This document shows positions 1 through 33,710 of a stretch of DNA of 37,184 nucleotides, piece after piece. The stretch's first letter is position 1; every line of letters starts with the position of its first letter. Source of the stretch: Candidatus Moraniibacteriota bacterium (GTDB taxonomy: Bacteria > Patescibacteriota > Minisyncoccia > CAIUEV01); assembly GCA_016867255.1 (NCBI GenBank), contig VGKB01000002.1, positions 1 to 37,184 on the forward strand, read 5' to 3'. The translations under genes were made by a program, and so were the position numbers. A model generated the notes under the pieces. That model made no database searches, was not told the origin of the DNA, and was given only the letters and a program-made list of their open reading frames with translations.

Positions 1-363
1 GGGGTAACGGTGGAAGCGAAAAAAACGGTAGATATGAATCGTCCCGCGCCAGAACGGTACAGGGCAAGGGTGGAAGTGCGCGACACCGGCATCGGGATCA
101 AAAAAGAAGAGCAGGCAAACCTTTTCAAGAAATTCGTGCGCGCCGGCGAGGGCAGCAAGGTAAACGTGGTGGGCACCGGACTGGGACTTTATGTGGTTCG
201 CAAAATGATTGAGGCCCATAAAGGCAGAATTTGGGCCGAGTCCGCCGGCGAGGGCCGCGGCTCAAGTTTTATTATTGAGCTGCCGCTTAATCTGCCTCAT
301 CCTCCCGAAAAGGAGTTTGTGAAAAGAGTGGTGATGGAAAAAGACTTGAGCCCTAAAACTTAA
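1..363 (+). CDS. Sensor histidine kinase, C-terminal ATPase fragment (5' end outside the window)
   Basis: Frame is open from base 1; the listed ORF 10..363 only starts at the first in-frame GTG. Translation carries HATPase_c boxes VRDTGIGI (G1), LFKKFVR (F) and GTGLGLYVV (G2) and ends GRGSSFIIELPL like classical kinases. Confidence 0.85.
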   Translation, partial: GVTVEAKKTVDMNRPAPERYRARVEVRDTGIGIKKEEQANLFKKFVRAGEGSKVNVVGTGLGLYVVRKMIEAHKGRIWAESAGEGRGSSFIIELPLNLPHPPEKEFVKRVVMEKDLSPKT

Positions 364-364
364 A

Positions 365-1000
365 ATGAAACCCAAAAACCCAAAATTAAACTCAAGTATG
401 GCCAATAAAATATTCTTCATTGTTTTCGGCTTGCTGATCGCCGGGTCAGTGGCGGTTACTTATTGGCGCATCATGGTAAAACGCGATTACATCATTTCCG
501 CCCAGCAGGAATGCGATCCGGCTCTGGAAGCCTGTTTCGTTTATGAATGCGATCCAGAGGACCCGGAAGATCCGGAATGCGCCGCTCTTCCCGAAGAAGA
601 ACGCGTAAACTACTACAAAATCATCAGGAAAAACGCCAAAAACATTCCGCCCTGCGATGCCCAGAACAACGAATGCCCCGAAGTTTTGATTTGTGAAGAA
701 GGTGAGGAAGAATGTGAATTTGAATACTGCACCGAAGAAAATGTTCCCGAGGGAGAGTCATGCAATAATCCGGAAGAATATCTGGCGGAAAACCCGCCGG
801 AGGAATGCGGTTGTGAAGGAGAAGACGCGGATTCGCCTTTGACGGAAAAAGAGACTGAAACTGACGTGGATTCAGCGGAACCTGAAACTCCTGAGGTTGA
901 AGCTGAAACTGGCGCAGGCGAAGAAACGGCTGGAGACACTGCCGGCAGCGAGGAAGAATCCGCCGAAGAATCCTCCTGCGACTGCTCCGCCGAGGAGTAA
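365..1000 (+). CDS. Membrane-anchored, very acidic Cys-rich protein, function unknown
   Basis: ATG lies 1 nt after the kinase stop. One N-terminal hydrophobic helix (IFFIVFGLLIAGSVAVTYW) is followed by about 170 residues rich in Glu/Asp/Pro with 14 Cys. No family recognised. Confidence 0.7.
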   Translation: MKPKNPKLNSSMANKIFFIVFGLLIAGSVAVTYWRIMVKRDYIISAQQECDPALEACFVYECDPEDPEDPECAALPEEERVNYYKIIRKNAKNIPPCDAQNNECPEVLICEEGEEECEFEYCTEENVPEGESCNNPEEYLAENPPEECGCEGEDADSPLTEKETETDVDSAEPETPEVEAETGAGEETAGDTAGSEEESAEESSCDCSAEE

Positions 1001-1020
1001 ACCCCTGGAAGGTACCCCCA

Positions 1021-1048
1021 AGGACATTTCTAAAAATTTGTAAGAAAA
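1021..1048. repeat. 28-nt exact repeat aggacatttctaaaaatttgtaagaaaa (second copy 3244..3271)
   Basis: Identical 28-mer at both sites, each just upstream of a promoter-like tgcttg(a)caat segment. Confidence 0.9.
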
Positions 1049-1050
1049 AT

Positions 1051-1207
1051 CCCGATTTTGCTTGACAATTTTGTATAAATGGCCAGAATTAAGAGTTGCC
1101 GTAATAGCAAGTTCTTTGAAAAAACCGAGTTTTACTCGGTCCACGCGAGAACCCGGTCTACCCGGTTAACTCGTGAACAATCTCCGTAGGAGGTGCCGCG
1201 ATGAACG
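1051..1207 (+). repeat. 157-nt promoter/leader repeat, copy A (copy B at 5155..5311)
   Basis: Manual alignment: offset exactly 4104 nt, no indels, 4 substitutions (1106, 1133, 1134, 1185). Confidence 0.95.
1062..1200 (+). promoter_or_regulatory. Promoter (TTGACA-17 nt-AGAATT) plus about 105-nt structured leader, family member A
   Basis: Perfect -35 at 1062-1067. Small stem TTGC(1096-1099)/GCAA(1107-1110) is followed by GTTCTTTGAAAAAA. Then hairpin CCGAG-N5-CTCGG (1125-1139) and CACGCGAG..CTCGTG enclosing AACCCGG..CCGGTT. SD GGAGG sits 7 nt before ATG 1201. Confidence 0.6.
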
Positions 1208-1335
1208 GCAAGCTGAGTTGGCTGAAGCGTGCCGCGAACTCCATCGCGGCGCAAACTAAGAAACCCTTAAACTTCTTATATGCTTGGCGAGTCCGCCTCG
1301 CCACCATCGGAACTTTCCACCATTATAAAAATTAA
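1201..1335 (+). CDS. Short 44-codon ORF, probable truncated paralogue of the 5305..5877 membrane protein
   Basis: Same SD and ATGAACG start as copy B. The N-terminus MNGKLSWLKRAANSIAAQTKK aligns with MNVFAEWLKRCAAFFAAHWEK of 5305..5877. Below the size cut-off of the ORF track. Confidence 0.35.
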   Translation: MNGKLSWLKRAANSIAAQTKKPLNFLYAWRVRLATIGTFHHYKN

Positions 1336-1351
1336 ATACCCCGTTGCAAGA

Positions 1352-1882
1352 TCAACAACTCCCCTTAATTCTAAAATGTCCCGTTGAGTGAGTGTGTTTA
1401 TATTTCATTTTGCCATGAGGTTTATCCCGAATAACTTTAAAATCTGGATTTGCGTGGAACTTTTCTGCTAATAATTTCAACTCCTCTTTCGTCGGGAAAA
1501 ATACTTCTGTTTTTCTCTTCTCCCTCATATTTTTTACTGTTTTGTCATCTGACATAAGCATTCTGACAATTATTTCCCCCCCTAGCCTAAGCTTCTCGTA
1601 GTATTTTTCGATGAGATCGTATGCTTCTTTTTTGGACATGAACATCAACACGTAAGAGAAAATAACCAAGTCAAATTTTATATTTAAATCAACATCCCTT
1701 ATATTTTTATTTATTAAGGTTATGCTTTTTTCTTGATGAGCTTTCTTGATGTTCCTCCTAGCCGCTTCAAAAATAGTTTTGTTTTTTTCAACTCCAAAAA
1801 CAATAAATCCCTTTTTAGCAAAATCAATTGCCTCTATAGCTTCACCGCAGCCAACATCTAAGAGTCTTTTTCTGTTCATCAT
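1352..1882 (-). CDS. Class I SAM-dependent methyltransferase
   Basis: Motif I LLDVGCGEAIEAIDFAKKG near the N-terminus and an acidic post-I residue (VFGVEKN); the size (176 aa) is typical of small Rossmann-fold methyltransferases. Confidence 0.8.
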   Translation of the reverse strand: MMNRKRLLDVGCGEAIEAIDFAKKGFIVFGVEKNKTIFEAARRNIKKAHQEKSITLINKNIRDVDLNIKFDLVIFSYVLMFMSKKEAYDLIEKYYEKLRLGGEIIVRMLMSDDKTVKNMREKRKTEVFFPTKEELKLLAEKFHANPDFKVIRDKPHGKMKYKHTHSTGHFRIKGSC

Positions 1883-1908
1883 ATTTAAAAATAGTAAATT
1901 TTGAGAAT

Positions 1909-1949
1909 GAGGCGTGACTTATTTGAATTTAAATGACGCCTCTTTTTTT
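1909..1949 (+). terminator. Hairpin plus T7 run, intrinsic-terminator-like, plus-strand orientation
   Basis: GAGGCGT (1909-1915) pairs with ACGCCTC (1936-1942), followed by TTTTTTT (1943-1949). No plus-strand CDS ends nearby, so it would end a transcript reading antisense through the methyltransferase gene. Confidence 0.4.
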
Positions 1950-2068
1950 GTCATAAACTTCTCCAACACTGAGGATCTTTTTTTCTCCAATCGCCGCTAT
2001 ATTGCCCATAAGAAACAGCTGGGCACCCTCGGCAATAAAACTTTAGTTCGCACCTAGCGCATTCCATT

Positions 2069-2095
2069 ATTTATAGCAAGGCGCTGTCCTTGAAA
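2069..2095. repeat. 27-nt perfect direct repeat atttatagcaaggcgctgtccttgaaa, copy 1
   Basis: Identical to 2958..2984. Contains the hairpin CAAGG-cgctgt-CCTTG. Lies 51 nt past the doc stop. Confidence 0.95.
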
Positions 2096-2146
2096 ATTTG
2101 TGAAATGACGACAGGGATCCCCCTCATTGGCGATCTTTCTGGAAAT

Positions 2147-2575
2147 TTACTTAATGTAGCTAATCAGGTAGGTGTCAATAAATTTCTTGATGGCCGCTAC
2201 GGTTTCGTCTTTTAATTTTGGATTGCTTTCCGCCACCCACTTGGCAAAATTGTATAATTCCCTGTTGTCGACTTTCACCCATTTCTTGTTCTTGTAGAGA
2301 AAATAAAACAAGGTGGTCATGGCTATCCGCTTGTTGCCATTTTCGAAAGGATGGTTCTTTATCATTAAATAAAACAAGATGGAAGCTTTGCCCAAAAGCC
2401 CCTGGTACAGTAATTTTTTCCCAAAAGTTTGAAATGGAACCGCCACACAGCTTTCTAATATCCCCGGAAAGCGTGAATTAAAATCGGGGATCGGTTCGTC
2501 CCAGCGCATCATTTCCCTCGCCAGAATATGGGTTACGTGTTTGATTTCAAAAATGGTTAGCGGTTTTATTTTCAT
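2147..2575 (-). CDS. doc: Doc (death-on-curing) / Fic-family toxin
   Basis: The Fic/Doc active-site motif HPFENGNKRIAM matches the Doc variant HxFx(D/E)GNKR. 142 aa; 4-nt ATGA overlap with the upstream HTH gene. Confidence 0.85.
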   Translation of the reverse strand: MKIKPLTIFEIKHVTHILAREMMRWDEPIPDFNSRFPGILESCVAVPFQTFGKKLLYQGLLGKASILFYLMIKNHPFENGNKRIAMTTLFYFLYKNKKWVKVDNRELYNFAKWVAESNPKLKDETVAAIKKFIDTYLISYIK

Positions 2576-2826
2576 TCCTTCCCTAATAAAATTAGTGTTT
2601 CTTTGTATTCTTTGACCGTTTTCCGCACCGATTTTTCAATTTCTTTTTTCTCTTTTTCGGACGGTTCCTTTTTAAAAATATCTGGAAGGTTTTTCCTCTC
2701 AATGGCATAGATCCGACCGATTTTTTCCGCCTTTAACTTGCCCGACTTTATCTTTTTAAACACGGCGATCCGGCTGATTCCCAAAATTTTCGCCATTTCG
2801 GCAGTAGTGAAATGTTTTTTTATCAT
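2572..2826 (-). CDS. Helix-turn-helix DNA-binding protein, probable antitoxin of Doc
   Basis: The N-terminal excisionase/MerR-like HTH is FTTAEMAKILGISRIAVFKKIKSGKLKAEKIGRIYAI. It has a charged C-terminal tail and is translationally coupled to doc. Confidence 0.75.
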   Translation of the reverse strand: MIKKHFTTAEMAKILGISRIAVFKKIKSGKLKAEKIGRIYAIERKNLPDIFKKEPSEKEKKEIEKSVRKTVKEYKETLILLGKE

Positions 2827-2832
2827 GGGAGT

Positions 2833-2879
2833 ATTTTAATTTATGTTAACCATTTAGTCAATAGTTAACAATCGTTAAC
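2833..2879 (-). promoter_or_regulatory. Promoter of the HTH-doc operon with three GTTAAC palindromes (candidate operators)
   Basis: On the minus strand TTGACT (2856-2861), a 17-nt spacer and TAAAAT (2833-2838) sit 6 nt before the ATG. GTTAAC occurs at 2845-2850 (inside the spacer), 2864-2869 and 2874-2879. Confidence 0.55.
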
Positions 2880-2957
2880 CAATTTTGCTTGACTATACAA
2901 AAAAAGGTTTCAAAATAAATACCAGAAAAGGTTGTTTGGCTTCTTTGCTAATACTTA

Positions 2958-2984
2958 ATTTATAGCAAGGCGCTGTCCTTGAAA
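2958..2984. repeat. 27-nt perfect direct repeat, copy 2
   Basis: Identical to 2069..2095. Lies 132 nt upstream of the HTH gene start. Confidence 0.95.
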
Positions 2985-3089
2985 GCCCGCCAATTATTTG
3001 AATTTCTAATCACTGACGTCTTCAAAACGCAAAAAGTGAAAAAGCGGGAAATGAAAAGATGAAAAATAGACCAAAACTGGCCGAAACGC

Positions 3090-3118
3090 TTGACAAAACC
3101 GTGGTTATTTAATATTAC
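3090..3118 (+). promoter_or_regulatory. Promoter-like TTGACA-17 nt-TATTAC with no adjacent CDS
   Basis: cttgacaaaaccgtggttattt (3089-3110) differs at one base from the promoter core at 14371-14392. The next plus-strand CDS starts at 3357. Confidence 0.45.
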
Positions 3119-3243
3119 TATTTCAGTAAAGTGCGATTATTTATACTTTAATGAAACAGAAAAAGTTAGTTCTCTTGGTCGTGTCCGAAACTTCCACGAT
3201 TCTCTGGAAAGAGAAATAAAGAGATACCTATGATCCTAAAAAT

Positions 3244-3271
3244 AGGACATTTCTAAAAATTTGTAAGAAAA
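3244..3271. repeat. Second copy of the 28-nt repeat at 1021..1048
   Basis: Exact 28/28 match, followed by a degenerate version of the copy-A promoter (tgcttgcaat vs tgcttgacaat). Confidence 0.9.
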
Positions 3272-3356
3272 CCTGTCAAATGCTTGCAATAAAAATTTTT
3301 TAGTGTAGAAATAATCTAAAATGATGATTATTCTTATAACATAACTTCAAAAACCC

Positions 3357-4292
3357 ATGCCGCTGATAAATAACGACTTAAAAATTGTGGAGTTTTTCCG
3401 AAAAAATTTCAAAGAAGTTGAAAATAAATTAAGGAAAAAGAGAATAGTAATAATCTACGGTGGATTTTCTGAGGAAAGGGGAACTTCAATTGAAAGTGGT
3501 AGTTCGGTTTACAAAGAGCTTAAAAAAAACGGTTTTAAAACGATCAAGATTGATCCTTCGCAAAGAAATTTTATCCCCCTTCTAAATAAAAAAGTCGACC
3601 TTGTTTTTAATTGCCTCCATGGTTCCTTTGGGGAAAGCGGTCATCTCCCAGCAATTTTAGATTATCTAAAAGTACCCTATACGTTTTCTGGGGTTTACGC
3701 TTCTGCCGTTACAATGGATAAAATTTATTTTAAATCGATTGCCAAGAAATTAGGATTTAATTGTCCTTTAGACAATCTTGATAAGGATAAATTATCCAAA
3801 AAACAAACTAGATTCATTTATAAAAAAATCAGAGGCGGTAGTAGTAAGGGCATGCGAATAGTTGACACAATTAGGCCAAAAAATGGATGTTTTGTCGAGG
3901 AGTTCGTTGACGGAAATTTTTTAACAATGGGGATTTTTGAACAAAAGGGGTCATTTTACCCTTTGGGAATAGTATCTTTTATAGCCAGGGAGAGAGAATT
4001 TTACGATGAAGCAGCTAAGTATCAAGGGCTATACAAATATAGTAAATATAGCGGAGCAAACGCGGAGAAGATTAGAGAAATATCTATAAAGGTTTCTGAT
4101 TTTTTGGATATAAAAGGCGCTGCCCGCCTTGATTTTATCGAAAAGGATAGCCAGCTTTTCCTGCTGGAAATTAACAGTGTGCCCGGCATCTACCCTAAAA
4201 GTAATTTGGCTTGTTCCGCCCGGCTCGCGAATTTTAGCTACTATGAATTACTGGTTTGGATACTAAACAACGCCGGTTATTCAAAATTATAA
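3357..4292 (+). CDS. ddl: D-alanine--D-alanine ligase family ATP-grasp enzyme
   Basis: Three Ddl-like segments: N-terminal RIVIIYGGFSEERGTSIESG, then VDLVFNCLHGSFGESGHLPAILDYLKVPYTFSG, and C-terminal ARLDFIEKDSQLFLLEINSVPG. The central domain looks shortened, so the true substrate is uncertain. Confidence 0.7.
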   Translation: MPLINNDLKIVEFFRKNFKEVENKLRKKRIVIIYGGFSEERGTSIESGSSVYKELKKNGFKTIKIDPSQRNFIPLLNKKVDLVFNCLHGSFGESGHLPAILDYLKVPYTFSGVYASAVTMDKIYFKSIAKKLGFNCPLDNLDKDKLSKKQTRFIYKKIRGGSSKGMRIVDTIRPKNGCFVEEFVDGNFLTMGIFEQKGSFYPLGIVSFIAREREFYDEAAKYQGLYKYSKYSGANAEKIREISIKVSDFLDIKGAARLDFIEKDSQLFLLEINSVPGIYPKSNLACSARLANFSYYELLVWILNNAGYSKL

Positions 4293-4298
4293 TTCTAT

Positions 4299-4952
4299 AT
4301 GGGTTACGAAAAATCAAATCTCAACGATGGAAATGAGAGAGAAAAAACAGAAAGCATTATTATTGAGAACGTTCCGTTTGTTACGCAACTATACGATACA
4401 GATAATTATCAGATTCTAGGCTTTAAAGACTTAGCTGAAGCCGAACACTGGTCAAAAAGAGACTGTGGAATAGTTTGTATTGAAATGGCAGTGAGGTTTT
4501 TTCTTCCGGATCTCAAGATAAGAACAAAGGAATTAATTAATATGGGATTGCAAATCCACGCTTATAAAGAAAATGTTGGTTGGATACACGATGGTTTAGT
4601 AGAAATTGCTACCAGGTTGGGCTTGAAAGCTAGCCGGGAAAGTATCGGAGGAGATCTAGAGAAAATTAAAAACCACTTGGAGGAAAACAGACTGGTGATA
4701 GCATCCATATCGCATGGTTTTGAGGTGGGAAAAGAATATAAAGAAGAAAATGGATCAGTTTATATTGTACCGCGAGGGGGTCACTTGGCGGTTATATTCG
4801 GGATAACCGAAAAACTAGGGAAAATTAAGAGTATTTATCTTCACCACCCTTCTCCATACAAAACATATAGCTGGAAAAACTATTCAGTTTCAGCTAACAA
4901 ATTTATGGGTTCTTTCTCCGAAAGAGGAAACATCATTTCCCTGGGTAAGTAA
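4299..4952 (+). CDS. C39-like (papain-fold) cysteine peptidase/acyltransferase domain protein
   Basis: Catalytic-Cys context RDCGIVCIEMAV and downstream His context PRGGHLAVIFG match the Peptidase_C39_2 / BtrH_N pattern. Starts 6 nt after the ATP-grasp gene. Confidence 0.6.
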   Translation: MGYEKSNLNDGNEREKTESIIIENVPFVTQLYDTDNYQILGFKDLAEAEHWSKRDCGIVCIEMAVRFFLPDLKIRTKELINMGLQIHAYKENVGWIHDGLVEIATRLGLKASRESIGGDLEKIKNHLEENRLVIASISHGFEVGKEYKEENGSVYIVPRGGHLAVIFGITEKLGKIKSIYLHHPSPYKTYSWKNYSVSANKFMGSFSERGNIISLGK

Positions 4953-5154
4953 AGATTTTGTCGTTCCAAGCCGACAGAGAAAAAATAAGGTTTATTATTG
5001 ACTATTGCGATAAAAATAACATCGATTACATCGGCCAAACTGGGTTAACCCCAACCCTGCCTGTATAAATCTCGGGTGTCTTTTATATTTTTAAAGCTAC
5101 AATGTTTTTTCGGATCATCAATAATAGAATAGAGGGGAGATTTTAGCCCGAAAC

Positions 5155-5311
5155 CCCGATTTTGCTTGACAATTTTGTATAAATGGCCAGAATTAAGAGT
5201 TGCCGTAATGGCAAGTTCTTTGAAAAAACCGAGTTTCGCTCGGTCCACGCGAGAACCCGGTCTACCCGGTTAACTCGTGAACAATCTCTGTAGGAGGTGC
5301 CGCGATGAACG
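5155..5311 (+). repeat. 157-nt promoter/leader repeat, copy B
   Basis: See copy A (1051..1207). Confidence 0.95.
5166..5304 (+). promoter_or_regulatory. Promoter plus structured leader, family member B
   Basis: Same architecture as member A. The 1106 a-to-g change lengthens the small stem to TTGCC/GGCAA, and the two changes at 5237-5238 fall in the loop of the CCGAG/CTCGG hairpin. Confidence 0.6.
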
Positions 5312-5877
5312 TTTTCGCTGAGTGGCTGAAGAGATGCGCCGCGTTCTTCGCGGCCCATTGGGAAAAACTGAAAAAGCTGGGAATTACTGTTATTGGATGG
5401 ACTAGCAATAGCGCCGTGGAGGCCGCGTTTAATTACGTGATCTACCCATTCATTATTGTGAAGTTTGGCGTTTTGCTTGGCGTTTCCATTGCGGTAATAG
5501 CTTCTTTCACAATTTGTTGCCTGACTTTTCGTTTTTACGATTGGTCTCAAAAGGACTGGTTCGGAATCGAGAAGATAAAAGAGATTCGCGAAGGAAAGGG
5601 AGATACAAAGGTTGGATGGTTCGCTTCGCGTTTTTTAAAAGGTAGCAAGTGGTTGGCTTTTGTCTACATCACATTCAAATTTGATGCTTTTATGGCAACC
5701 ATATTCATGCGGGAAGGAGCGTATCAATTCAACGAACTGAGCCGGAGAGACAAAAAAATCTTCCTGTTTAGCTTCTTCCTTAGCGCCATCACATGGTGGC
5801 CACTAGTTTGCGGGGTTCTCTATGGAGGAGAGTGGGCCTGGGAAACTTGGTTCAAAGATCTCGCAAACATTTTTTAG
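5305..5877 (+). CDS. Polytopic membrane protein (about 4-5 TM), function unknown
   Basis: Strong SD GGAGG. Hydrophobic segments include YVIYPFIIVKFGVLLGVSIAVIASFTICCL and IFLFSFFLSAITWWPLVCGVLY. Followed by a strong terminator. Confidence 0.8.
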   Translation: MNVFAEWLKRCAAFFAAHWEKLKKLGITVIGWTSNSAVEAAFNYVIYPFIIVKFGVLLGVSIAVIASFTICCLTFRFYDWSQKDWFGIEKIKEIREGKGDTKVGWFASRFLKGSKWLAFVYITFKFDAFMATIFMREGAYQFNELSRRDKKIFLFSFFLSAITWWPLVCGVLYGGEWAWETWFKDLANIF

Positions 5878-5891
5878 TAAATGACCCTGAC

Positions 5892-5921
5892 GGCGGCGTT
5901 GTTCCAACAACGCCGCCTTTT
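5892..5921 (+). terminator. Rho-independent terminator
   Basis: GGCGGCGTTGTT (5892-5903) pairs perfectly with AACAACGCCGCC (5906-5917), followed by TTTT. Confidence 0.7.
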
Positions 5922-5995
5922 AAAAAAAATCATTCCACCGTTGCGGATTTAATAAATTGGGATTATGATTTATCCGCTAGAATAATCTAAGCAAT

Positions 5996-6610
5996 GTGGC
6001 AAACAACAACGAGCAAAAAAACCTCTTGGAGAAAGAATTGGAGCTCAATCAATTTGAAGTCGAAACGATAGACAAGCCTGATGAAGAGATTTTTAGAAAA
6101 ATTATTAATCTTGAAAATTCTTGCATCCCTGAAAGTTGGAGGTTCTCGGAGGATTTCTATGAGCAAGAGTTATCCAAACCCGAAAATATAAAAATTATTC
6201 TCAGAACCAAAGACCGGGATAAAAAATTAATTGGATTGGTCCTTTTGGAACCATACAATAACAATCTCATAAATGAGATGCTGGAAGATGATCCCGAACT
6301 TAAAATAGTCGAGGGCTCCGCTTATTATATGATTACAATCGAAATAGATCCAGACTATCAAGGAATGGGACTCTCATCAACATTGTTTGATGCGATGGAA
6401 AGTGAGATGATTGTCAGAGGATCAAATAAACTAATATTGCACGCAAGAGTTAGTAATGGTTTCAGCAATTCCTTAGAAAAGAGATATGGTGATAGAATAA
6501 TTAATAAAAGGCGGATTGATAGATGGAAATATTACAAGCCAGAAGAGCCTTGTGACTATATGGAGATCCAATTAGAAAAAAAATATACTACAGATACCCC
6601 CACTCTTTAA
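5996..6610 (+). CDS. GNAT-family N-acetyltransferase
   Basis: Acetyl-CoA binding motif IEIDPDYQGMGLSSTLFDAME (Q/RxxGxG/A). GTG start, no in-frame ATG nearby. Confidence 0.75.
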   Translation: MANNNEQKNLLEKELELNQFEVETIDKPDEEIFRKIINLENSCIPESWRFSEDFYEQELSKPENIKIILRTKDRDKKLIGLVLLEPYNNNLINEMLEDDPELKIVEGSAYYMITIEIDPDYQGMGLSSTLFDAMESEMIVRGSNKLILHARVSNGFSNSLEKRYGDRIINKRRIDRWKYYKPEEPCDYMEIQLEKKYTTDTPTL

Positions 6611-7901
6611 GTTTTTTTCTATCCTCTTTGATAAATTTTAACCCGATGTCTGTTCGGTAATATTTCTTTGGTATCACTACTTTTTCGATAATCGAATAGA
6701 CTTTCTTTCTGGCTTCCTTAATTGTTTTTCCTACTCCAGAAACGTGCATAATATATCCGCTATTTGCACAAATGTAATATTCTCCGGTCCTTTTCCTTGC
6801 TACCTCTTCGAGGTGAATATGTTTTTGATCTCCGATCTTAAAATTATCTTTAAAATATATCATTAGCCCTTTTGGAGAAAAACTTGTAAACATATTCCGA
6901 TAATAAGGGAATGGTGGAGCCGCCACAAGAACAACTATTCCAAATCCCTTCTTCCACCCCAGATTAAAATTTTTCCCATCAGCAACAGCCTTGAGAAACT
7001 CTGCCCAAGAAGAATTGTGAATCTCCATTTGCAATTGAGTAGCTGGGTATCCAAATCTTGCAGTAGCCTCAAGGGGAAAAACTCCTCTTCGATTAACAAT
7101 GCAGTTTATTGCAATGTCGCCACGAAAATTAATTCTCGCAAGATACTCCTTGAGCTTTGATAAAGTTTCTGAGTATACTTTATTTTTTTCATCATTCGAG
7201 TACCACATAAGAGTACCCATCTCGTCTGTCTTCGGGCCAACTCCCCCGTTAAAAAAATCTTTGTACTCAAAACTAATTTCGATCGGTCCAACCCAATTTT
7301 TCCCGTTAAAATATCTTGCTATGCTAATCTCTACACCCTTAATTCTTTTTTGCAAATCAAATTGAGAACAATTTTTATTTGTGTAATAACTACATTTATA
7401 ATTTTCTAATAGGCTTATCAGATCTCGGTTATCCTTAAATTTGCTTACGTAATTTAAAGTTTTATTACTGTCTCCGCTTTGTTTAATTACCCATGGACCA
7501 GGGTTGCTCTTTAAAAAATCAATGCCTTCTTTTATGTCGTAAAAGGTGGTCGATGGGGAAACGTTCATACCGACAAAACTAAAAATTTTCTGCCCATATT
7601 GCCTGTCTTTTTCTAATTTATCTCCAAGCTTACAGCCTCCCACTACAGAATATCCTTCATTCCTCAATTCATCCTGAACTTTTCCCATGCCAACATCATC
7701 AAAAACAATTAGCCCTTCTTTGCCAACCCAACTAACCCCTTTGTCCAGGTCGTCAATCTTTTCAACAACACCCTCTAAGATTTTCCTAATATCCTTATTC
7801 TTATCTTTTATAAACCACTTTACGTGGTTTCGCTCCCCCTTGAGCTTACAGCAGAGACTTGCTCCGTGGGCATCGGTTGGCGAAACAAAAAGAATACGCA
7901 T
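6588..7901 (-). CDS. PurD-like (phosphoribosylamine--glycine ligase family) ATP-grasp enzyme
   Basis: Segments matching PurD: GLIVFDDVGMGKVQDELRNEGYSVVGG, GPWVIKQSGD, GPKTDEMGTLMWY and FRGDIAINCIVNRRGVFPLEATARFGYPATQ (compare GPNTGGMG and EFNCRFGDPETQ of PurD). No other pur genes in the window. Confidence 0.6.
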   Translation of the reverse strand: MRILFVSPTDAHGASLCCKLKGERNHVKWFIKDKNKDIRKILEGVVEKIDDLDKGVSWVGKEGLIVFDDVGMGKVQDELRNEGYSVVGGCKLGDKLEKDRQYGQKIFSFVGMNVSPSTTFYDIKEGIDFLKSNPGPWVIKQSGDSNKTLNYVSKFKDNRDLISLLENYKCSYYTNKNCSQFDLQKRIKGVEISIARYFNGKNWVGPIEISFEYKDFFNGGVGPKTDEMGTLMWYSNDEKNKVYSETLSKLKEYLARINFRGDIAINCIVNRRGVFPLEATARFGYPATQLQMEIHNSSWAEFLKAVADGKNFNLGWKKGFGIVVLVAAPPFPYYRNMFTSFSPKGLMIYFKDNFKIGDQKHIHLEEVARKRTGEYYICANSGYIMHVSGVGKTIKEARKKVYSIIEKVVIPKKYYRTDIGLKFIKEDRKKLKEWGYL

Positions 7902-8085
7902 AAAAGCTTAAATATATTGTGCTTACTTCTATCATACACATACCAGATTAGAACAAAATAATCTTTTTCCCTAATTTTTTGGGAAAAATTGCATTTTCTT
8001 ATCTATTATCTTTTAAATTTTTTATTCTAGGTTTAAAATATAACTAATTCTTTTGCTGATATTCTAAATACAAAAAAATATTAAA

Positions 8086-9927
8086 ATGCTTTGCCTAGAT
8101 TTTGAAACCCCACATTTTCTAGTTTTTGCGAGTACGACTCCTTCTCTTATTTATTTCTCTCATATACCTGCGATGTTGCTATCGTTATTGATGGGATTTT
8201 TTATATTCATAAAAAATAAGAAAGCATTAATTTCGCAAATTTTGTTTACTTTATCTATAACGTTCTCTTTGTCATGCTTTGTCTTACTTATTACTTGGAC
8301 TAATAATGACACCAGCATTATAATGTTTGTTTGGTCAATTTTTGGAATTTTGTATCTTCTGACATTCTTTTTCTCTTTCTATCTAGTATACCTTTTTATA
8401 AAACAGCGTGATATTAGTTTAAAAACAAAAATTTTTCTATCGTTGTTTCTTGCGCCAACCATTTTTTTCGCATCATCAAAATATAATCTAAATGTTTTTG
8501 ACTTAAAACTGTGTGGCATAACCCAAGAAGGAAGATATTTCACAAATTATTATTATATTGCAGGATTAGCGATTTTTATATGGATGTCTATTGTTTCAAT
8601 AACCAATTATTTAAAAATTAAAACTATTTTTAGAAAACAGATTTTACTCTTGCTCGGAGGCGTCAGTTTTTTCTTACTATCACTCTTTTTTACAGGTTTT
8701 TTAGCAAGTCTCTTAGTGGACTATGGGGTATTTAGTGACTATTCTGTGGAGCAATATGGACTATTCGGAATGCTGGTGTTTTTAGCTTTTCTTTCATATC
8801 TAATCATTAAATATCAAGCCTTCGATATTAAAGTTATTGCAGCTCAGTTCCTTACCGTTACGGTGTGGATTGGGGTGTTTTCCCAGTTTTTCATTGTGCA
8901 GGAGTTGAGTAATCAGATTCTTACTGGCGTGACGCTTGCCCTTGTAACGATTTTTGGGTATATGCTTTTTCGCGCCATCAAAGAAGATGTTTCCCTTACC
9001 GAACAATTGCGGCTCGCTTCCGGCAAGCTGGCAATCTTAAACACCAAACTCAAAGAAATTGACGCCGCCAAATCCGAATTCGTCTCCATTGCCTCGCACC
9101 AACTACGCACCCCCCTCACCTCGGTGAAGGGCTACGCCTCCCTCATTTTGGAAAACACCTTCGGAAAAATCCCTCTCCGCCAGCGCGAAGCGGTGGAAAA
9201 ACTCTATGTCAACAACGAAAAACTGGTGCTTTTGGTGGAAGATATGCTCAACGCTTCCCGCCTGGAAGCCGGCCGGCTGGAATACGAATTTGAAGAGGTG
9301 GACGTCCCGCCTCTCATCAAAGAGATAGTGGATAATATGCAGCTCCACGCCAAAAGCAAAAATCTCTTGCTTAAATACACCGCTCCTTCCAAAACCCGTT
9401 CGGCTTCGCTCAGGGCAAGCTCTTTAATCGCCCTTGCCGACAAGCGCAAGGTGGCCGAAATTATCGCCAATCTCATTGACAACGCCGTGAAATACTCCCC
9501 TGCCCTTCATGAAGGGCAGAACAATACGGCTGAAAAACAAACTATAACCGTCAGCGTCTCCCGCTGCGAGTTGGCAAGGCCGGTCGGTAAAGCGAAAAAC
9601 ACCAAAATTCTAAACGGCGCCGGGGTGCGCGTAAGCGTTGCCGACAACGGAATCGGCATGAGCGAAAAGGAACTGAAAGAAATATTTGAGAAGTTTAAAA
9701 AAGGAGAAACGAAAAATGAGAAACAGGAAACGGGATCGTCCTTTATAGTTAAAAGAGAGAAAGAAGGAGAAATTGATAACAAAATAGACAATATCACCGG
9801 CACCGGCCTCGGCGTCTACATCTCCCGCCAGATGGCCCGCGCCATGGGCGGCGATCTGTGCGCCACTTCGCCGGGCAAAGGCAAAGGGAGTACATTTACC
9901 CTAGAATTACCCCTGGTTAAAAAATAG
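8086..9927 (+). CDS. Multi-pass membrane sensor histidine kinase
   Basis: About 270 aa of N-terminal transmembrane helices. H box SEFVSIASHQLRTPLTSVKGY, N box NLIDNAVKYS, G1 DNGIGM and G2 GTGLGVY, with a charged insertion of about 35 aa between the F box and G2. No response regulator nearby. Confidence 0.9.
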   Translation: MLCLDFETPHFLVFASTTPSLIYFSHIPAMLLSLLMGFFIFIKNKKALISQILFTLSITFSLSCFVLLITWTNNDTSIIMFVWSIFGILYLLTFFFSFYLVYLFIKQRDISLKTKIFLSLFLAPTIFFASSKYNLNVFDLKLCGITQEGRYFTNYYYIAGLAIFIWMSIVSITNYLKIKTIFRKQILLLLGGVSFFLLSLFFTGFLASLLVDYGVFSDYSVEQYGLFGMLVFLAFLSYLIIKYQAFDIKVIAAQFLTVTVWIGVFSQFFIVQELSNQILTGVTLALVTIFGYMLFRAIKEDVSLTEQLRLASGKLAILNTKLKEIDAAKSEFVSIASHQLRTPLTSVKGYASLILENTFGKIPLRQREAVEKLYVNNEKLVLLVEDMLNASRLEAGRLEYEFEEVDVPPLIKEIVDNMQLHAKSKNLLLKYTAPSKTRSASLRASSLIALADKRKVAEIIANLIDNAVKYSPALHEGQNNTAEKQTITVSVSRCELARPVGKAKNTKILNGAGVRVSVADNGIGMSEKELKEIFEKFKKGETKNEKQETGSSFIVKREKEGEIDNKIDNITGTGLGVYISRQMARAMGGDLCATSPGKGKGSTFTLELPLVKK

Positions 9928-9933
9928 ATCAGC
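9799..9933 (+). repeat. 135-nt direct repeat, copy 1 (functional 3' end of the kinase gene)
   Basis: Recurs at 13611..13745. The first 56 nt are identical, with about a dozen substitutions after that. Confidence 0.9.
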
Positions 9934-13575: not shown

Positions 13576-13604
13576 TTGACACCGAAAGTAGTCATGGATA
13601 AAAT
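13576..13604 (+). promoter_or_regulatory. Promoter-like TTGACA-17 nt-TAAAAT reading into the kinase remnant
   Basis: TTGACA at 13576-13581, TAAAAT at 13599-13604. Confidence 0.4.
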
Positions 13605-13610
13605 ACCAGT

Positions 13611-13745
13611 GGCACCGGCCTCGGCGTCTACATCTCCCGCCAGATGGCCCGCGCCATGGGCGGCGACCTCTACGCCACCTCCCCCGGGAAGAATAAAGGG
13701 AGTACCTTTACCCTAGAATTACCCCTGGTTAAAAAATAGATCAGC
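13611..13745 (+). pseudogene. Remnant 3' end of a histidine-kinase gene (repeat copy 2)
   Basis: Translates in frame as GTGLGVYISRQMARAMGGDLYATSPGKNKGSTFTLELPLVKK*, but an in-frame TAA lies at 13599-13601 and there is no kinase body upstream. Confidence 0.8.
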
Positions 13746-13841
13746 TGTTTATTTTGCTCTACTCCATCCAAAGCTCCTTTTCCTGTAAAATGAGGGGGCT
13801 ATATTCTGTTAAAAAAATTGCATGAACATACCCAAAAAACC

Positions 13842-13985
13842 TTGACAAAAATGAATAAAAATTGATAATTAAGGGTTGTTAAAAGGGCAAGTTCTTTAAA
13901 AAATGTTCGTAGGAACCCAAGGTGTTAAGCTATAACACTTTGGGTTCCTACGAACAAGACCAGACAAGACGAGGAGGGAAAAACC
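13842..13985 (+). promoter_or_regulatory. Promoter (TTGACA-17 nt-ATAATT) plus structured leader, family member C
   Basis: AAGGGTTGTTAAAAGGGCAAGTTCTTTAAAAAA (13871-13903) matches members A and B. Then a roughly 22-bp hairpin at 13905-13955 (gttcgtaggaacccaaggtgtt / aacactttgggttcctacgaac). SD GGAGGG precedes ATG 13986. Confidence 0.6.
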
Positions 13986-14371: not shown

Positions 14372-14533
14372 TTGACAAAACCGTAGTTATTTTGATAATA
14401 AAAGGTTGCCTGATTGGAACTTGCGGCTCAAGTTCCGGGGCGACAGGTTCTTTATAAAACATATTCCTTAGCCAAAAAAGATATCCGCCCCTGGCGGAAA
14501 ACCCAACAACCCGATACCCATAAGGAGGAGTTT
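14372..14533 (+). promoter_or_regulatory. Promoter (TTGACA-17 nt-ATAATA) plus structured leader, family member D
   Basis: GTTGCC (14405-14410) pairs with GGCGAC (14439-14444) and encloses an inserted hairpin GGAACTTG-cggct-CAAGTTCC (14416-14436). Then AGGTTCTTTATAAAAC and hairpin CCGCC-cct-GGCGG. SD AAGGAGG precedes ATG 14534. Confidence 0.6.
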
Positions 14534-17136: not shown

Positions 17137-17279
17137 GATGGTTACAAAACTCAATTTTTTTAATTTTTTTGTATCTAGCTCGCATTGCAGTTAATGCCTC
17201 TCAGGCGACCTGCCCGCCGAAGCCTCGGCGCAGGCGGGCGTCCCACAAAAAAATTAAAATGGGGAGTTTTGTAACCATC
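17137..17279. repeat. 143-nt long-hairpin (inverted-repeat) element
   Basis: GATGGTTACAAAACTC (17137-17152) pairs perfectly with GAGTTTTGTAACCATC (17264-17279). Pairing continues through ttttaatttttttgt / acaaaaaaattaaaa. The apex holds GC-rich hairpins (GCATT..AATGC; GAC-ct-GCCCGCC..GGCGGGC-GTC). Confidence 0.8.
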
Positions 17280-33513: not shown

Positions 33514-33598
33514 TGCCGGAGAGGAGAGTTGAACTCCTACCACCCTAAGGGTGACAACGCCCTGAACGTTGCGTGTCTGCCAATTCCACCACTCCGGC
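33514..33598 (-). tRNA. tRNA-Leu (anticodon CAG)
   Basis: The reverse complement folds by hand. Acceptor GCCGGAG/CTCCGGC, D arm GTGG..ACAC, anticodon stem CAACG/CGTTG with loop TTCAGGG, long variable arm CACCC-tta-GGGTG, T arm AGGAG-TTCAACT-CTCCT, discriminator A. No encoded CCA. Confidence 0.9.
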
Positions 33599-33710
33599 GT
33601 CTTTCGCTAAAGCTCCAGAACGCCTAAAAGGTATTCCGTAGCCTTAGCGAAGGATACCACTCCGGCGTCTTTCGCTAAAGCTCCAGAACGCCTAAAAGGT
33701 ATTCCGTAGC
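33588..33710. repeat. 55-nt direct repeat x2 (33588-33642 and 33656-33710) covering tRNA-Leu positions 1-11 plus 44 nt of its upstream flank
   Basis: Both copies read accactccggcgtctttcgctaaagctccagaacgcctaaaaggtattccgtagc. Period 68 nt. Confidence 0.9.

Follow-up and report, generated by a model that had tools for sequence, protein, structure and literature searches.

A near-identical pair of promoter-leader copies bordering an accessory region upstream of a conserved membrane protein gene in a Moraniibacteriota genome

Near the start of contig VGKB01000002.1 (37,184 nt; GenBank assembly GCA_016867255.1) of a Candidatus Moraniibacteriota bacterium, a promoter with its untranslated leader occurs twice, and the two copies are about 97% identical up to the start codon and diverged beyond it. 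Has the leader been held constant by selection, or made uniform by recombination? Both possibilities had been raised in an earlier note on this DNA. The window analyzed here covers contig C2 (37 kb) completely; the genome bin to which it belongs has 105 contigs, amounts to 870 kb, and resembles those typical of ultra-small bacteria of the candidate phyla radiation. On balance, we favor an explanation in which one copy (B) is the working leader of a gene for a conserved 190-aa membrane protein, the other (A) is an orphan, both edge an accessory region scrambled by recombination, and one of the two leaders replaced the other or gave rise to it as a copy. As part of the same explanation, the repeat would be a two-copy promoter-leader module of a lineage-specific type, consisting of a strong sigma-70-like promoter, a 5' hairpin, a box, variable hairpins, and a partly paired Shine-Dalgarno (SD) sequence.

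A genuine two-copy repeat

The direct repeat spans positions 1047-1207 (copy A) and 5151-5311 (copy B), with a spacing of 4104 nt, and aligns without insertions or deletions (indels), 156 of the 161 positions being identical; the best alternative offset within the window yields at most 67/161. Over 1051-1207, where the earlier note had reported an indel-free alignment with four differences, direct comparison gave the same result (153/157), with mismatches at 1106 (A in copy A, G in copy B), 1133-1134 (TA/CG), and 1185 (C/T). The abrupt drop of identity where coding begins was recovered as well; its placement right after ATGAACG is roughly correct, except that BLASTN extends the match to 1227/5331 with two compensating indels.

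A genome-wide search, together with the self-BLASTN that had been proposed for counting copies, identified only two full copies in the 870-kb genome and two diverged leader relatives on the same contig, at 13841 and 14372. The 161-nt repeat used as a DNA query had no match in 60 related genomes. Numerous dispersed copies lacking any gene association, considered beforehand as a sign of a generic repeat element, were not seen; with two full and two diverged copies, each upstream of an open reading frame (ORF), a dispersed repeat or miniature inverted-repeat transposable element (MITE) can be discarded.

Could the duplication be an assembly artefact, or a chimera of co-existing strains with one leader copy per genome? 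The bin is metagenomic, and many of its contig ends are bounded by repeats, which is why a collapsed or duplicated contig end had been a concern. However, each copy has flanks of its own and can be told from the other at 4-5 sites, 1 kb separates copy A from the contig end, and the locus is present in independent assemblies, in the following contigs:

L040 (Logan SRR7052952): window 16-1080, 100% identical
L038 (Logan SRR7052952): window 1155-5184, 100% identical
L039 (Logan SRR7990334): window 1155-4028, 100% identical
L036 (Logan SRR7990334): window 5259-9828, 100% identical
L037 (JGI 3300020221): window 5103-6119, 100% identical

All four repeat junctions are reproduced in these assemblies, which come from three other datasets. 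L037 runs through the upstream flank, copy B (with every B-type base), and the gene, and L038 links the A-type base at 1185 to the coding fragment of copy A (fragment A) and covers the whole interior. The Logan contigs from two runs jointly cover the interior (1155-5184) and both outer flanks and break as predicted: between each of their ends (1080, 1155, 5184, and 5259) and the closest A/B difference lie exactly 30 nt, because a de Bruijn graph with k = 31 meets a real two-copy repeat, within which the exact runs are 55, 26, 50, and 22 nt long. The linkage of the flank of the 211-aa gene to the A-type bases at 1106 and 1133-1134 comes from contig C2 only. The independent contigs and the k = 31 break points therefore show that the repeat is real; an artefact or chimera is largely refuted and extremely improbable.

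Predicted anatomy of the leader

The two copies share one layout, all of it on the plus strand:

1047-1207, plus: leader copy A (orphan), with the -35 element at 1062-1067, the -10 element at 1084-1089, and the ATG at 1201
1096-1100/1106-1110, plus: first stem of copy A, followed by the boxA-like GTTCTTTGAAAA at 1111-1122 and by hairpins at 1124-1140 and 1144-1175
1180-1194, plus: anti-SD/SD mini-hairpin of copy A
5151-5311, plus: leader copy B (functional), with the features of copy A shifted by 4104; contained together with its two flanks in L037

A promoter scan identified TTGACA-16-CAGAAT in both copies (10 of 12 consensus positions). The predicted transcript, starting at about 1096, opens with the stem UUGCC/GGCAA, continues with the predicted single-stranded box GUUCUUUGAAAAAA, and then forms, 3' of the box, the predicted hairpins CCGAG...CUCGG and CGCGAG...CUCGUG. 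Before the AUG, a predicted mini-hairpin pairs UCUCC with the GGAGG of the ribosome-binding site. In this fold, the G at 1106 of copy B closes the fifth pair of the first stem, where copy A has an A; 1133 is a loop base; 1134 turns a U-A pair into U.G; and 1185 turns a C-G pair of the small hairpin that pairs with the SD into the U.G of copy B. The differences between A and B, at only four sites, are neutral for the predicted structure (a closing pair, a loop base, and two pairs that become G.U), and what had been remarked on the structural effects of 1106 and 1133-1134 holds.

An Rfam scan of the window at the gathering score returned a tRNA as the sole match, and a scan of 1000-1350 in E-value mode returned nothing with E < 1. 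A riboswitch or known cis-regulatory RNA was rejected, given that no Rfam family matched the leader.

One working gene and one orphan stub

The two leaders are followed by very different ORFs:

5305-5877, plus: gene of a multi-pass membrane protein of 190 aa that belongs to neither a Pfam nor an NCBIfam family
1201-1335, plus: 44-codon ORF, of which 1208-1270 is a diverged 5' fragment of the 190-aa family and 1271-1335 is unrelated

Copy B is the working leader of the conserved 190-aa gene. The description of this gene as encoding a membrane protein and ending in its own strong terminator was accurate, the latter being a 10-bp GC stem with a T-run at 5892-5921. Searches of public collections for the family yielded only three groups of orthologs, all in public metagenomes and with 67-73% protein identity, and a few distant homologs. 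AlphaFold modeling with four sequences reached a predicted local distance difference test (pLDDT) score of 42. In all three ortholog groups, a GNAT gene and then a PurD-like gene are located 3' of the 190-aa gene; a kinase gene is also found downstream in locus L007, the sole relative locus that reaches far enough. The genes upstream of the 190-aa gene are different in every relative locus. The PurD-like ATP-grasp gene of the window (6588-7901) is inverted compared with its counterparts in loci L007, L010, and L014, which point in the same direction as the 190-aa and GNAT genes there.

The ORF of copy A is indeed the short stub of 44 codons that had been noted. Its in-register nucleotide identity to copy B over 1208-1270 is 31/63 (null: 24.5% on average and 28/63 at most) and is at background from 1271 on. 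In gapped alignments, A matches B and the three orthologs at 66-76% over its first 100 nt; the same comparison among the full-length genes (B and the three orthologs) gives 67-83%. Fragment A is equally far from B and from the orthologs of other lineages. The 44-aa peptide retains W7, L8, I15, A16, A17, and K21 of the family and departs exactly at the family-invariant HWEKLK.LG. The downstream peptides had been called loosely alignable; homology at the peptide level is weak, whereas the nucleotide identity up to 1270 is significant. The family hidden Markov model (HMM) detected neither the 44-aa peptide nor any other family fragment in the genome. A HMMER search of the 44-aa ORF against 1.84 billion representatives found no homolog and one spurious match, and the ORF is not called as a gene in any assembly on record. 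A conserved small gene was rejected on these three counts. As to the source of fragment A, the neighbors of methyltransferase homologs offered no lead, the methyltransferase encoded next to copy A being a protein without homologs, and BLAST of the flanking segments W1, W2, X1, and Z1 against the genome and all loci returned only self matches and known remnants. With a diverged start of about 21 codons, unrelated sequence thereafter, no homolog, and no gene call, copy A is, on these comparisons, an orphan: a leader joined to the beginning of a diverged family member and then to unrelated sequence.

Selected modules within a probably recombined leader

The relatives of the 190-aa gene provide the comparison that separates selection from recombination. 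The closest leader-bearing ortholog, L007 (70% protein identity), keeps the promoter (43 of 49 nt), the first stem, the box GTTCCTTGAATAAA, and the ribosome-binding block AGGAGGTGCCGCGATGA. Between box and ribosome-binding site, its sequence is unalignable with that of the window, and its hairpins are entirely different. L010 and L014 share only the last 17-36 nt of the leader; the ribosome-binding block is exact in L007 and L010 and has one mismatch in L014. Distant homologs from four other genera of the same family and from one other family have the same succession of promoter, hairpin, box, and SD with unrelated stems, and their boxes are GCTCTTTAAAAA, GTTCATTAAAAA, GCACTTTTAAAA, GATCTTTGAAAT, and GTTCTTACACA. 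The following loci represent distant homologs that carry the promoter, 5' hairpin, and boxA-like box:

L028 (genome G003)
L029 (genome G002)
L030 (genome G005)
L031 (genome G001)
L025 (genome G153)

A hairpin near the transcript start was found in copies A and B, in L007, in one L010 leader, and in L028-L031, again with unrelated stem sequences. In the predicted fold of L028, the box pairs with the SD.

Distant homologs thus retain the arrangement although their stems are unrelated. Judging from this pattern of conservation, selection acts on short parts of the leader, namely the promoter, the boxA-like box, the ribosome-binding block, and (as a structure) the first hairpin, and not on the spacer hairpins. 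The spacer hairpins are unalignable in L007 and yet identical between A and B, so selection as the cause of the full 97% identity over 161 nt was rejected. Identical spacer hairpins next to coding starts that are diverged like those of different lineages argue for a recombination boundary, not a selection boundary: the step from near-identity over 161 nt to about 50-70% just downstream is shown by these alignments to fall at the start codon. The best reading of the 97% identity is recent recombination, that is, gene conversion or a leader copy. Of the two forces originally suggested, conversion or a similar recombination event thus accounts best for the repeat as a whole, and selection for its short modules only.

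An alternative is that both leaders are functional and are kept alike by purifying selection, with A driving either the 44-aa peptide or an antisense RNA that ends at 1909-1949. In favor of this, copy A has an intact promoter, SD, and ATG, the four differences are all compatible with the predicted structure, and a plus-strand stem with T7 is located at 1909-1949, just beyond a methyltransferase gene that is antisense to any leader A transcript. If active, leader A would transcribe antisense across that gene toward this stem. Against this, conservation of the hairpins between box and SD is lacking even in L007, the nearest ortholog with a leader, so that selection cannot hold 97% identity, and the 44-aa ORF has neither a homolog nor a gene call in other assemblies. 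We consider two functional leaders quite improbable and return to recombination as the preferred cause of the identity.

Modules of the same type also precede other genes, including those that follow the two diverged relatives in the window:

13841-13985, plus: leader C, a diverged paralog upstream of a 99-aa gene, with the box GTTCTTTAAAA, a perfect GYTCTTTAANA match
14372-14533, plus: leader D, a diverged paralog upstream of a 264-aa gene, with the box GTTCTTTATAAAA

In L010, two leader paralogs that are 75% alike (7403-7518 and 9024-9139) precede unrelated secreted or membrane proteins of 197 and 220 aa. The occurrence of one module type before unrelated genes indicates that the module has been copied independently of coding sequence more than once.

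The boxA-like box

The gamma-proteobacterial boxA consensus is GYTCTTTAANA, and a boxA is present in the 5' untranslated region of suhB (Baniulyte et al. 2017, PMC5725501). The box of leaders A and B (GTTCTTTGAAA) agrees with this consensus at 10 of 11 positions, that of leader C at 11/11, and that of leader D at 10/11; loose matches number 10 in the genome, and 4 of these are leaders A-D. The box in the genome's own rRNA leader is GCCCTTTAACA, and those in the rRNA leaders of relatives are GTCCTTTAACA and GTTCCTTAAAA. The mRNA boxes fall within the range of the rRNA-leader boxes of the family and are not identical to the genome's own rRNA box (7/11). NusB is encoded (PF01029 at C5:10119-10517, E = 1.6e-33), and a search of the 95%-complete genome for Rho_RNA_bind (PF07497) gave no match. 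The conserved modules are probably kept as a putative loading signal for Nus factors (NusB/S10).

The boxA/boxB signals of the Escherichia coli rrn leader and of suhB resemble the module in that a short U-rich single-stranded box stands just 3' of a 5' hairpin, which is the boxB-boxA order of rrn. As in suhB, the box is part of an mRNA leader; the genome also encodes NusB, and the rRNA leaders of the family have boxes that resemble it in part. The module differs from both in several respects: Rho was not detected in this genome, the box is about 65 nt away from the SD (in relatives L028 and L030 it is SD-adjacent), and the genes downstream encode orphan membrane or secreted proteins instead of translation factors.

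Accessory genes and remnants between the copies

The 3.9 kb between the copies contains the following features; the first listed repeat abuts copy A on its outer side:

1021-1048, plus: D4a, 28-nt exact repeat, abutting leader copy A; its twin is D4b
1352-1882, minus: intact SAM (S-adenosylmethionine)-dependent methyltransferase gene (Pfam Methyltransf_25/31/11), with no close homologs
2069-2095, plus: D5a, 27-nt exact repeat; codons 1-13 of an S-adenosylmethionine (AdoMet) decarboxylase gene come next, at 2105-2143
2147-2575 and 2572-2826, minus: Doc/Fic toxin gene (PF02661) and HTH_17 antitoxin-like gene (PF12728)
2889-3059, plus: AdoMet decarboxylase promoter/leader with D5b (2958-2984), running straight into the final 26 codons of the gene (2982-3059)
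3113-3229, plus: remnants of the sequences that flank an intact AbiEi/AbiEii pair in L010 (L010 5977-6025 and 7262-7308)
3244-3271, plus: D4b, 28-nt exact repeat, 12 nt upstream of the -35 element of the promoter of the ddl-like gene
3357-4292 and 4299-4952, plus: Ddl-like ATP-grasp gene and C39-like peptidase gene, the first two of a three-gene operon
4988-5038, plus: 17-codon internal remnant of the third gene of this operon, a second ATP-grasp (tblastn against L032 and L035, E = 1e-3 to 1e-4)

D4a and D4b are the only two copies of this repeat in the genome. The ddl operon is intact, with all three genes, in L032 and L035. The D5 27-mer is conserved (27/27) in L007 (9343-9481), before an intact AdoMet decarboxylase gene; in the window, the D5 pair flanks the toxin-antitoxin pair, and the order is circularly permuted compared with L007. 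An intact paralog of AdoMet decarboxylase is encoded on contig C32, the copy at 2069-3059 being split and permuted. No recombinase was found among the five long ORFs of 1336-5150, which encode the methyltransferase, Doc, HTH_17, Ddl-like, and C39-like proteins; HTH_17 is no more than a DNA-binding fold of the excisionase family and is paired here with Doc. GC content was rejected as an indicator of foreign origin, because the GNAT and PurD-like genes, which are syntenic, are as rich in AT as the block. On its gene content, the block is a patchwork of intact accessory genes and gene remnants, not one cassette. In relatives, other genes are found upstream of the 190-aa gene, and the succession of 211-aa gene, leader, and 190-aa gene was seen in none of them.

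How the copies may have arisen

Both copies would mark the edges of the scrambled accessory region upstream of a conserved 190aa-GNAT-PurD-kinase backbone. In the proposed mechanism, one leader recently replaced the other or was newly copied from it, and the conserved promoter block and the invariant ribosome-binding block could have served as homologous ends. The edges of the identical tract coincide with the outer edges of these two blocks, and at the left joint a GAAA is common to both copies (microhomology), which fits conversion or template switching with the blocks as homology.

Several points weigh against this explanation. RecA-type conversion between leaders as diverged as that of L007 would find only exact runs of 8-18 nt, which is mechanistically awkward; conversion, a leader copy, and capture through the leader are all candidate events. 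The structure-compatible differences between A and B hint, as far as the predicted fold goes, at constraint on copy A too, four sites being too few for more. Furthermore, the box drifts to CCTTGAA in L007 and L010, and, because no Rho gene was found, classic anti-Rho antitermination by the box is unlikely; by analogy with suhB, translation or processivity control seems the more likely role.

A different origin would be Campbell-type, or homology-facilitated, capture, in which the 4.1-kb block brought along its own leader and the first codons of a foreign homolog, and the two copies are attL/attR-like products. Direct repeats do flank a block of accessory genes that lacks a recombinase; the D4-to-D1 order is colinear in both copies, and the D4-to-leader order is thus repeated; the D5 pair is permuted relative to L007, as integration of a circle at a short site in common would predict; and a duplication of the 3' end of a kinase gene on the same contig (9790/13602) is mirrored here at a 5' end. 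Nevertheless, capture would need a donor with a leader 97% identical and a coding start only about 50-70% identical, which shifts the discontinuity to the donor without explaining it. Moreover, none of the relatives showed an empty site with the 211-aa gene, leader, and 190-aa gene in a row, and the block itself is a composite of several events. Capture therefore appears unlikely, and overwriting or copying of one leader by the other remains the explanation that we prefer.

Known systems show partial resemblance. As in Campbell insertion-duplication and islands at target ends (e14 at icd, islands at tRNA genes), direct repeats at a gene boundary bracket accessory genes, one copy serving an intact gene and the other being an orphan. 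Unlike in such islands, a 5' regulatory end is duplicated instead of a 3' end, there is no integrase, homology of low identity continues past the repeat on one side, and the block is composite. The orphan modules of Rhs/CDI ("displacement" arrays) similarly combine a truncated gene copy beside an intact gene with accessory genes in between, but here the N-terminal, promoter-proximal part is orphaned and the 190-aa gene itself lacks toxin/immunity logic. Concerted evolution by gene conversion, as between tuf or rrn copies, likewise yields a sharp step from near-identity to saturated divergence within one genome; here, however, the tract is only about 160 nt long and regulatory, and one partner is a pseudogene-like stub.

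Other duplications on the contig and in the genome

The kinase duplication mentioned above involves the last 144 nt of a histidine kinase gene:

9790-9933, plus: 3' end of the histidine kinase gene, duplicated at 13602-13745 (90% identity, 3.8 kb apart)

The second copy of this 3' end is a stub preceded by a stop codon. On contig C4, a 127-nt direct repeat (1105-1231/3968-4094, 95%) surrounds three minus-strand genes and represents a boundary-type duplication. On contig C26, GC-rich 137-nt repeats (1986-2122/2764-2900, 98%) with long internal palindromes bracket a 144-aa ORF. A possible third copy at about 1100, suggested only by a shared 25-aa ORF end, would together with the first repeat bracket unannotated minus-strand ORFs of 110 and 139 aa, an arrangement that looks like a small cassette array. 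A 143-nt MITE-like hairpin at 17137-17279 of the window has at least 8 copies (85-98%) on contigs C1, C3, C5 (twice), C10, C13, and C27. Perfect tandem repeats with a 68-nt period are present at unrelated places, at 33588-33710 of the window and at C12 8808-9029; the copy in the window matches the ends of C33 and C86.

We regard it as unlikely, and tentative at most, that in these ultra-small bacteria conserved gene boundaries (the 5' leader here and the kinase 3' end 8 kb away) are homology anchors for capture or shuffling of accessory blocks without a recombinase. If true, each event would leave an orphan boundary copy, the leader would double as regulatory signal and de facto attachment site, and the enclosed toxin-antitoxin pair would guard the captured block against loop-out.

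Implications

The repeats had been suspected of mediating deletion or inversion of the DNA between them. Recombination between the 161-nt direct repeats can remove the 4.1-kb block by deletion or looping out; inversion, by contrast, is impossible for direct repeats. Loss of a toxin-antitoxin pair is expected to penalize segregants, and loss of the Doc pair with the block would penalize loop-out in the same manner.

As read from the sequence, the duplication is the footprint of recombination in a hot spot of accessory genes, with a conserved boxA-type leader involved. Taken alone, it is a recombination scar, and the duplication as such is ordinary. It provides a base-pair-level record, backed by independent assemblies, of how the region upstream of a conserved gene was rebuilt, through nested exact repeats and gene stubs, in an uncultured bacterium with a reduced genome and no visible recombinase. 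The hairpin with the boxA-like box is a conserved leader of an uncharacterized membrane protein family across several genera and would represent a non-ribosomal target of Nus factors in a lineage that apparently lacks Rho.

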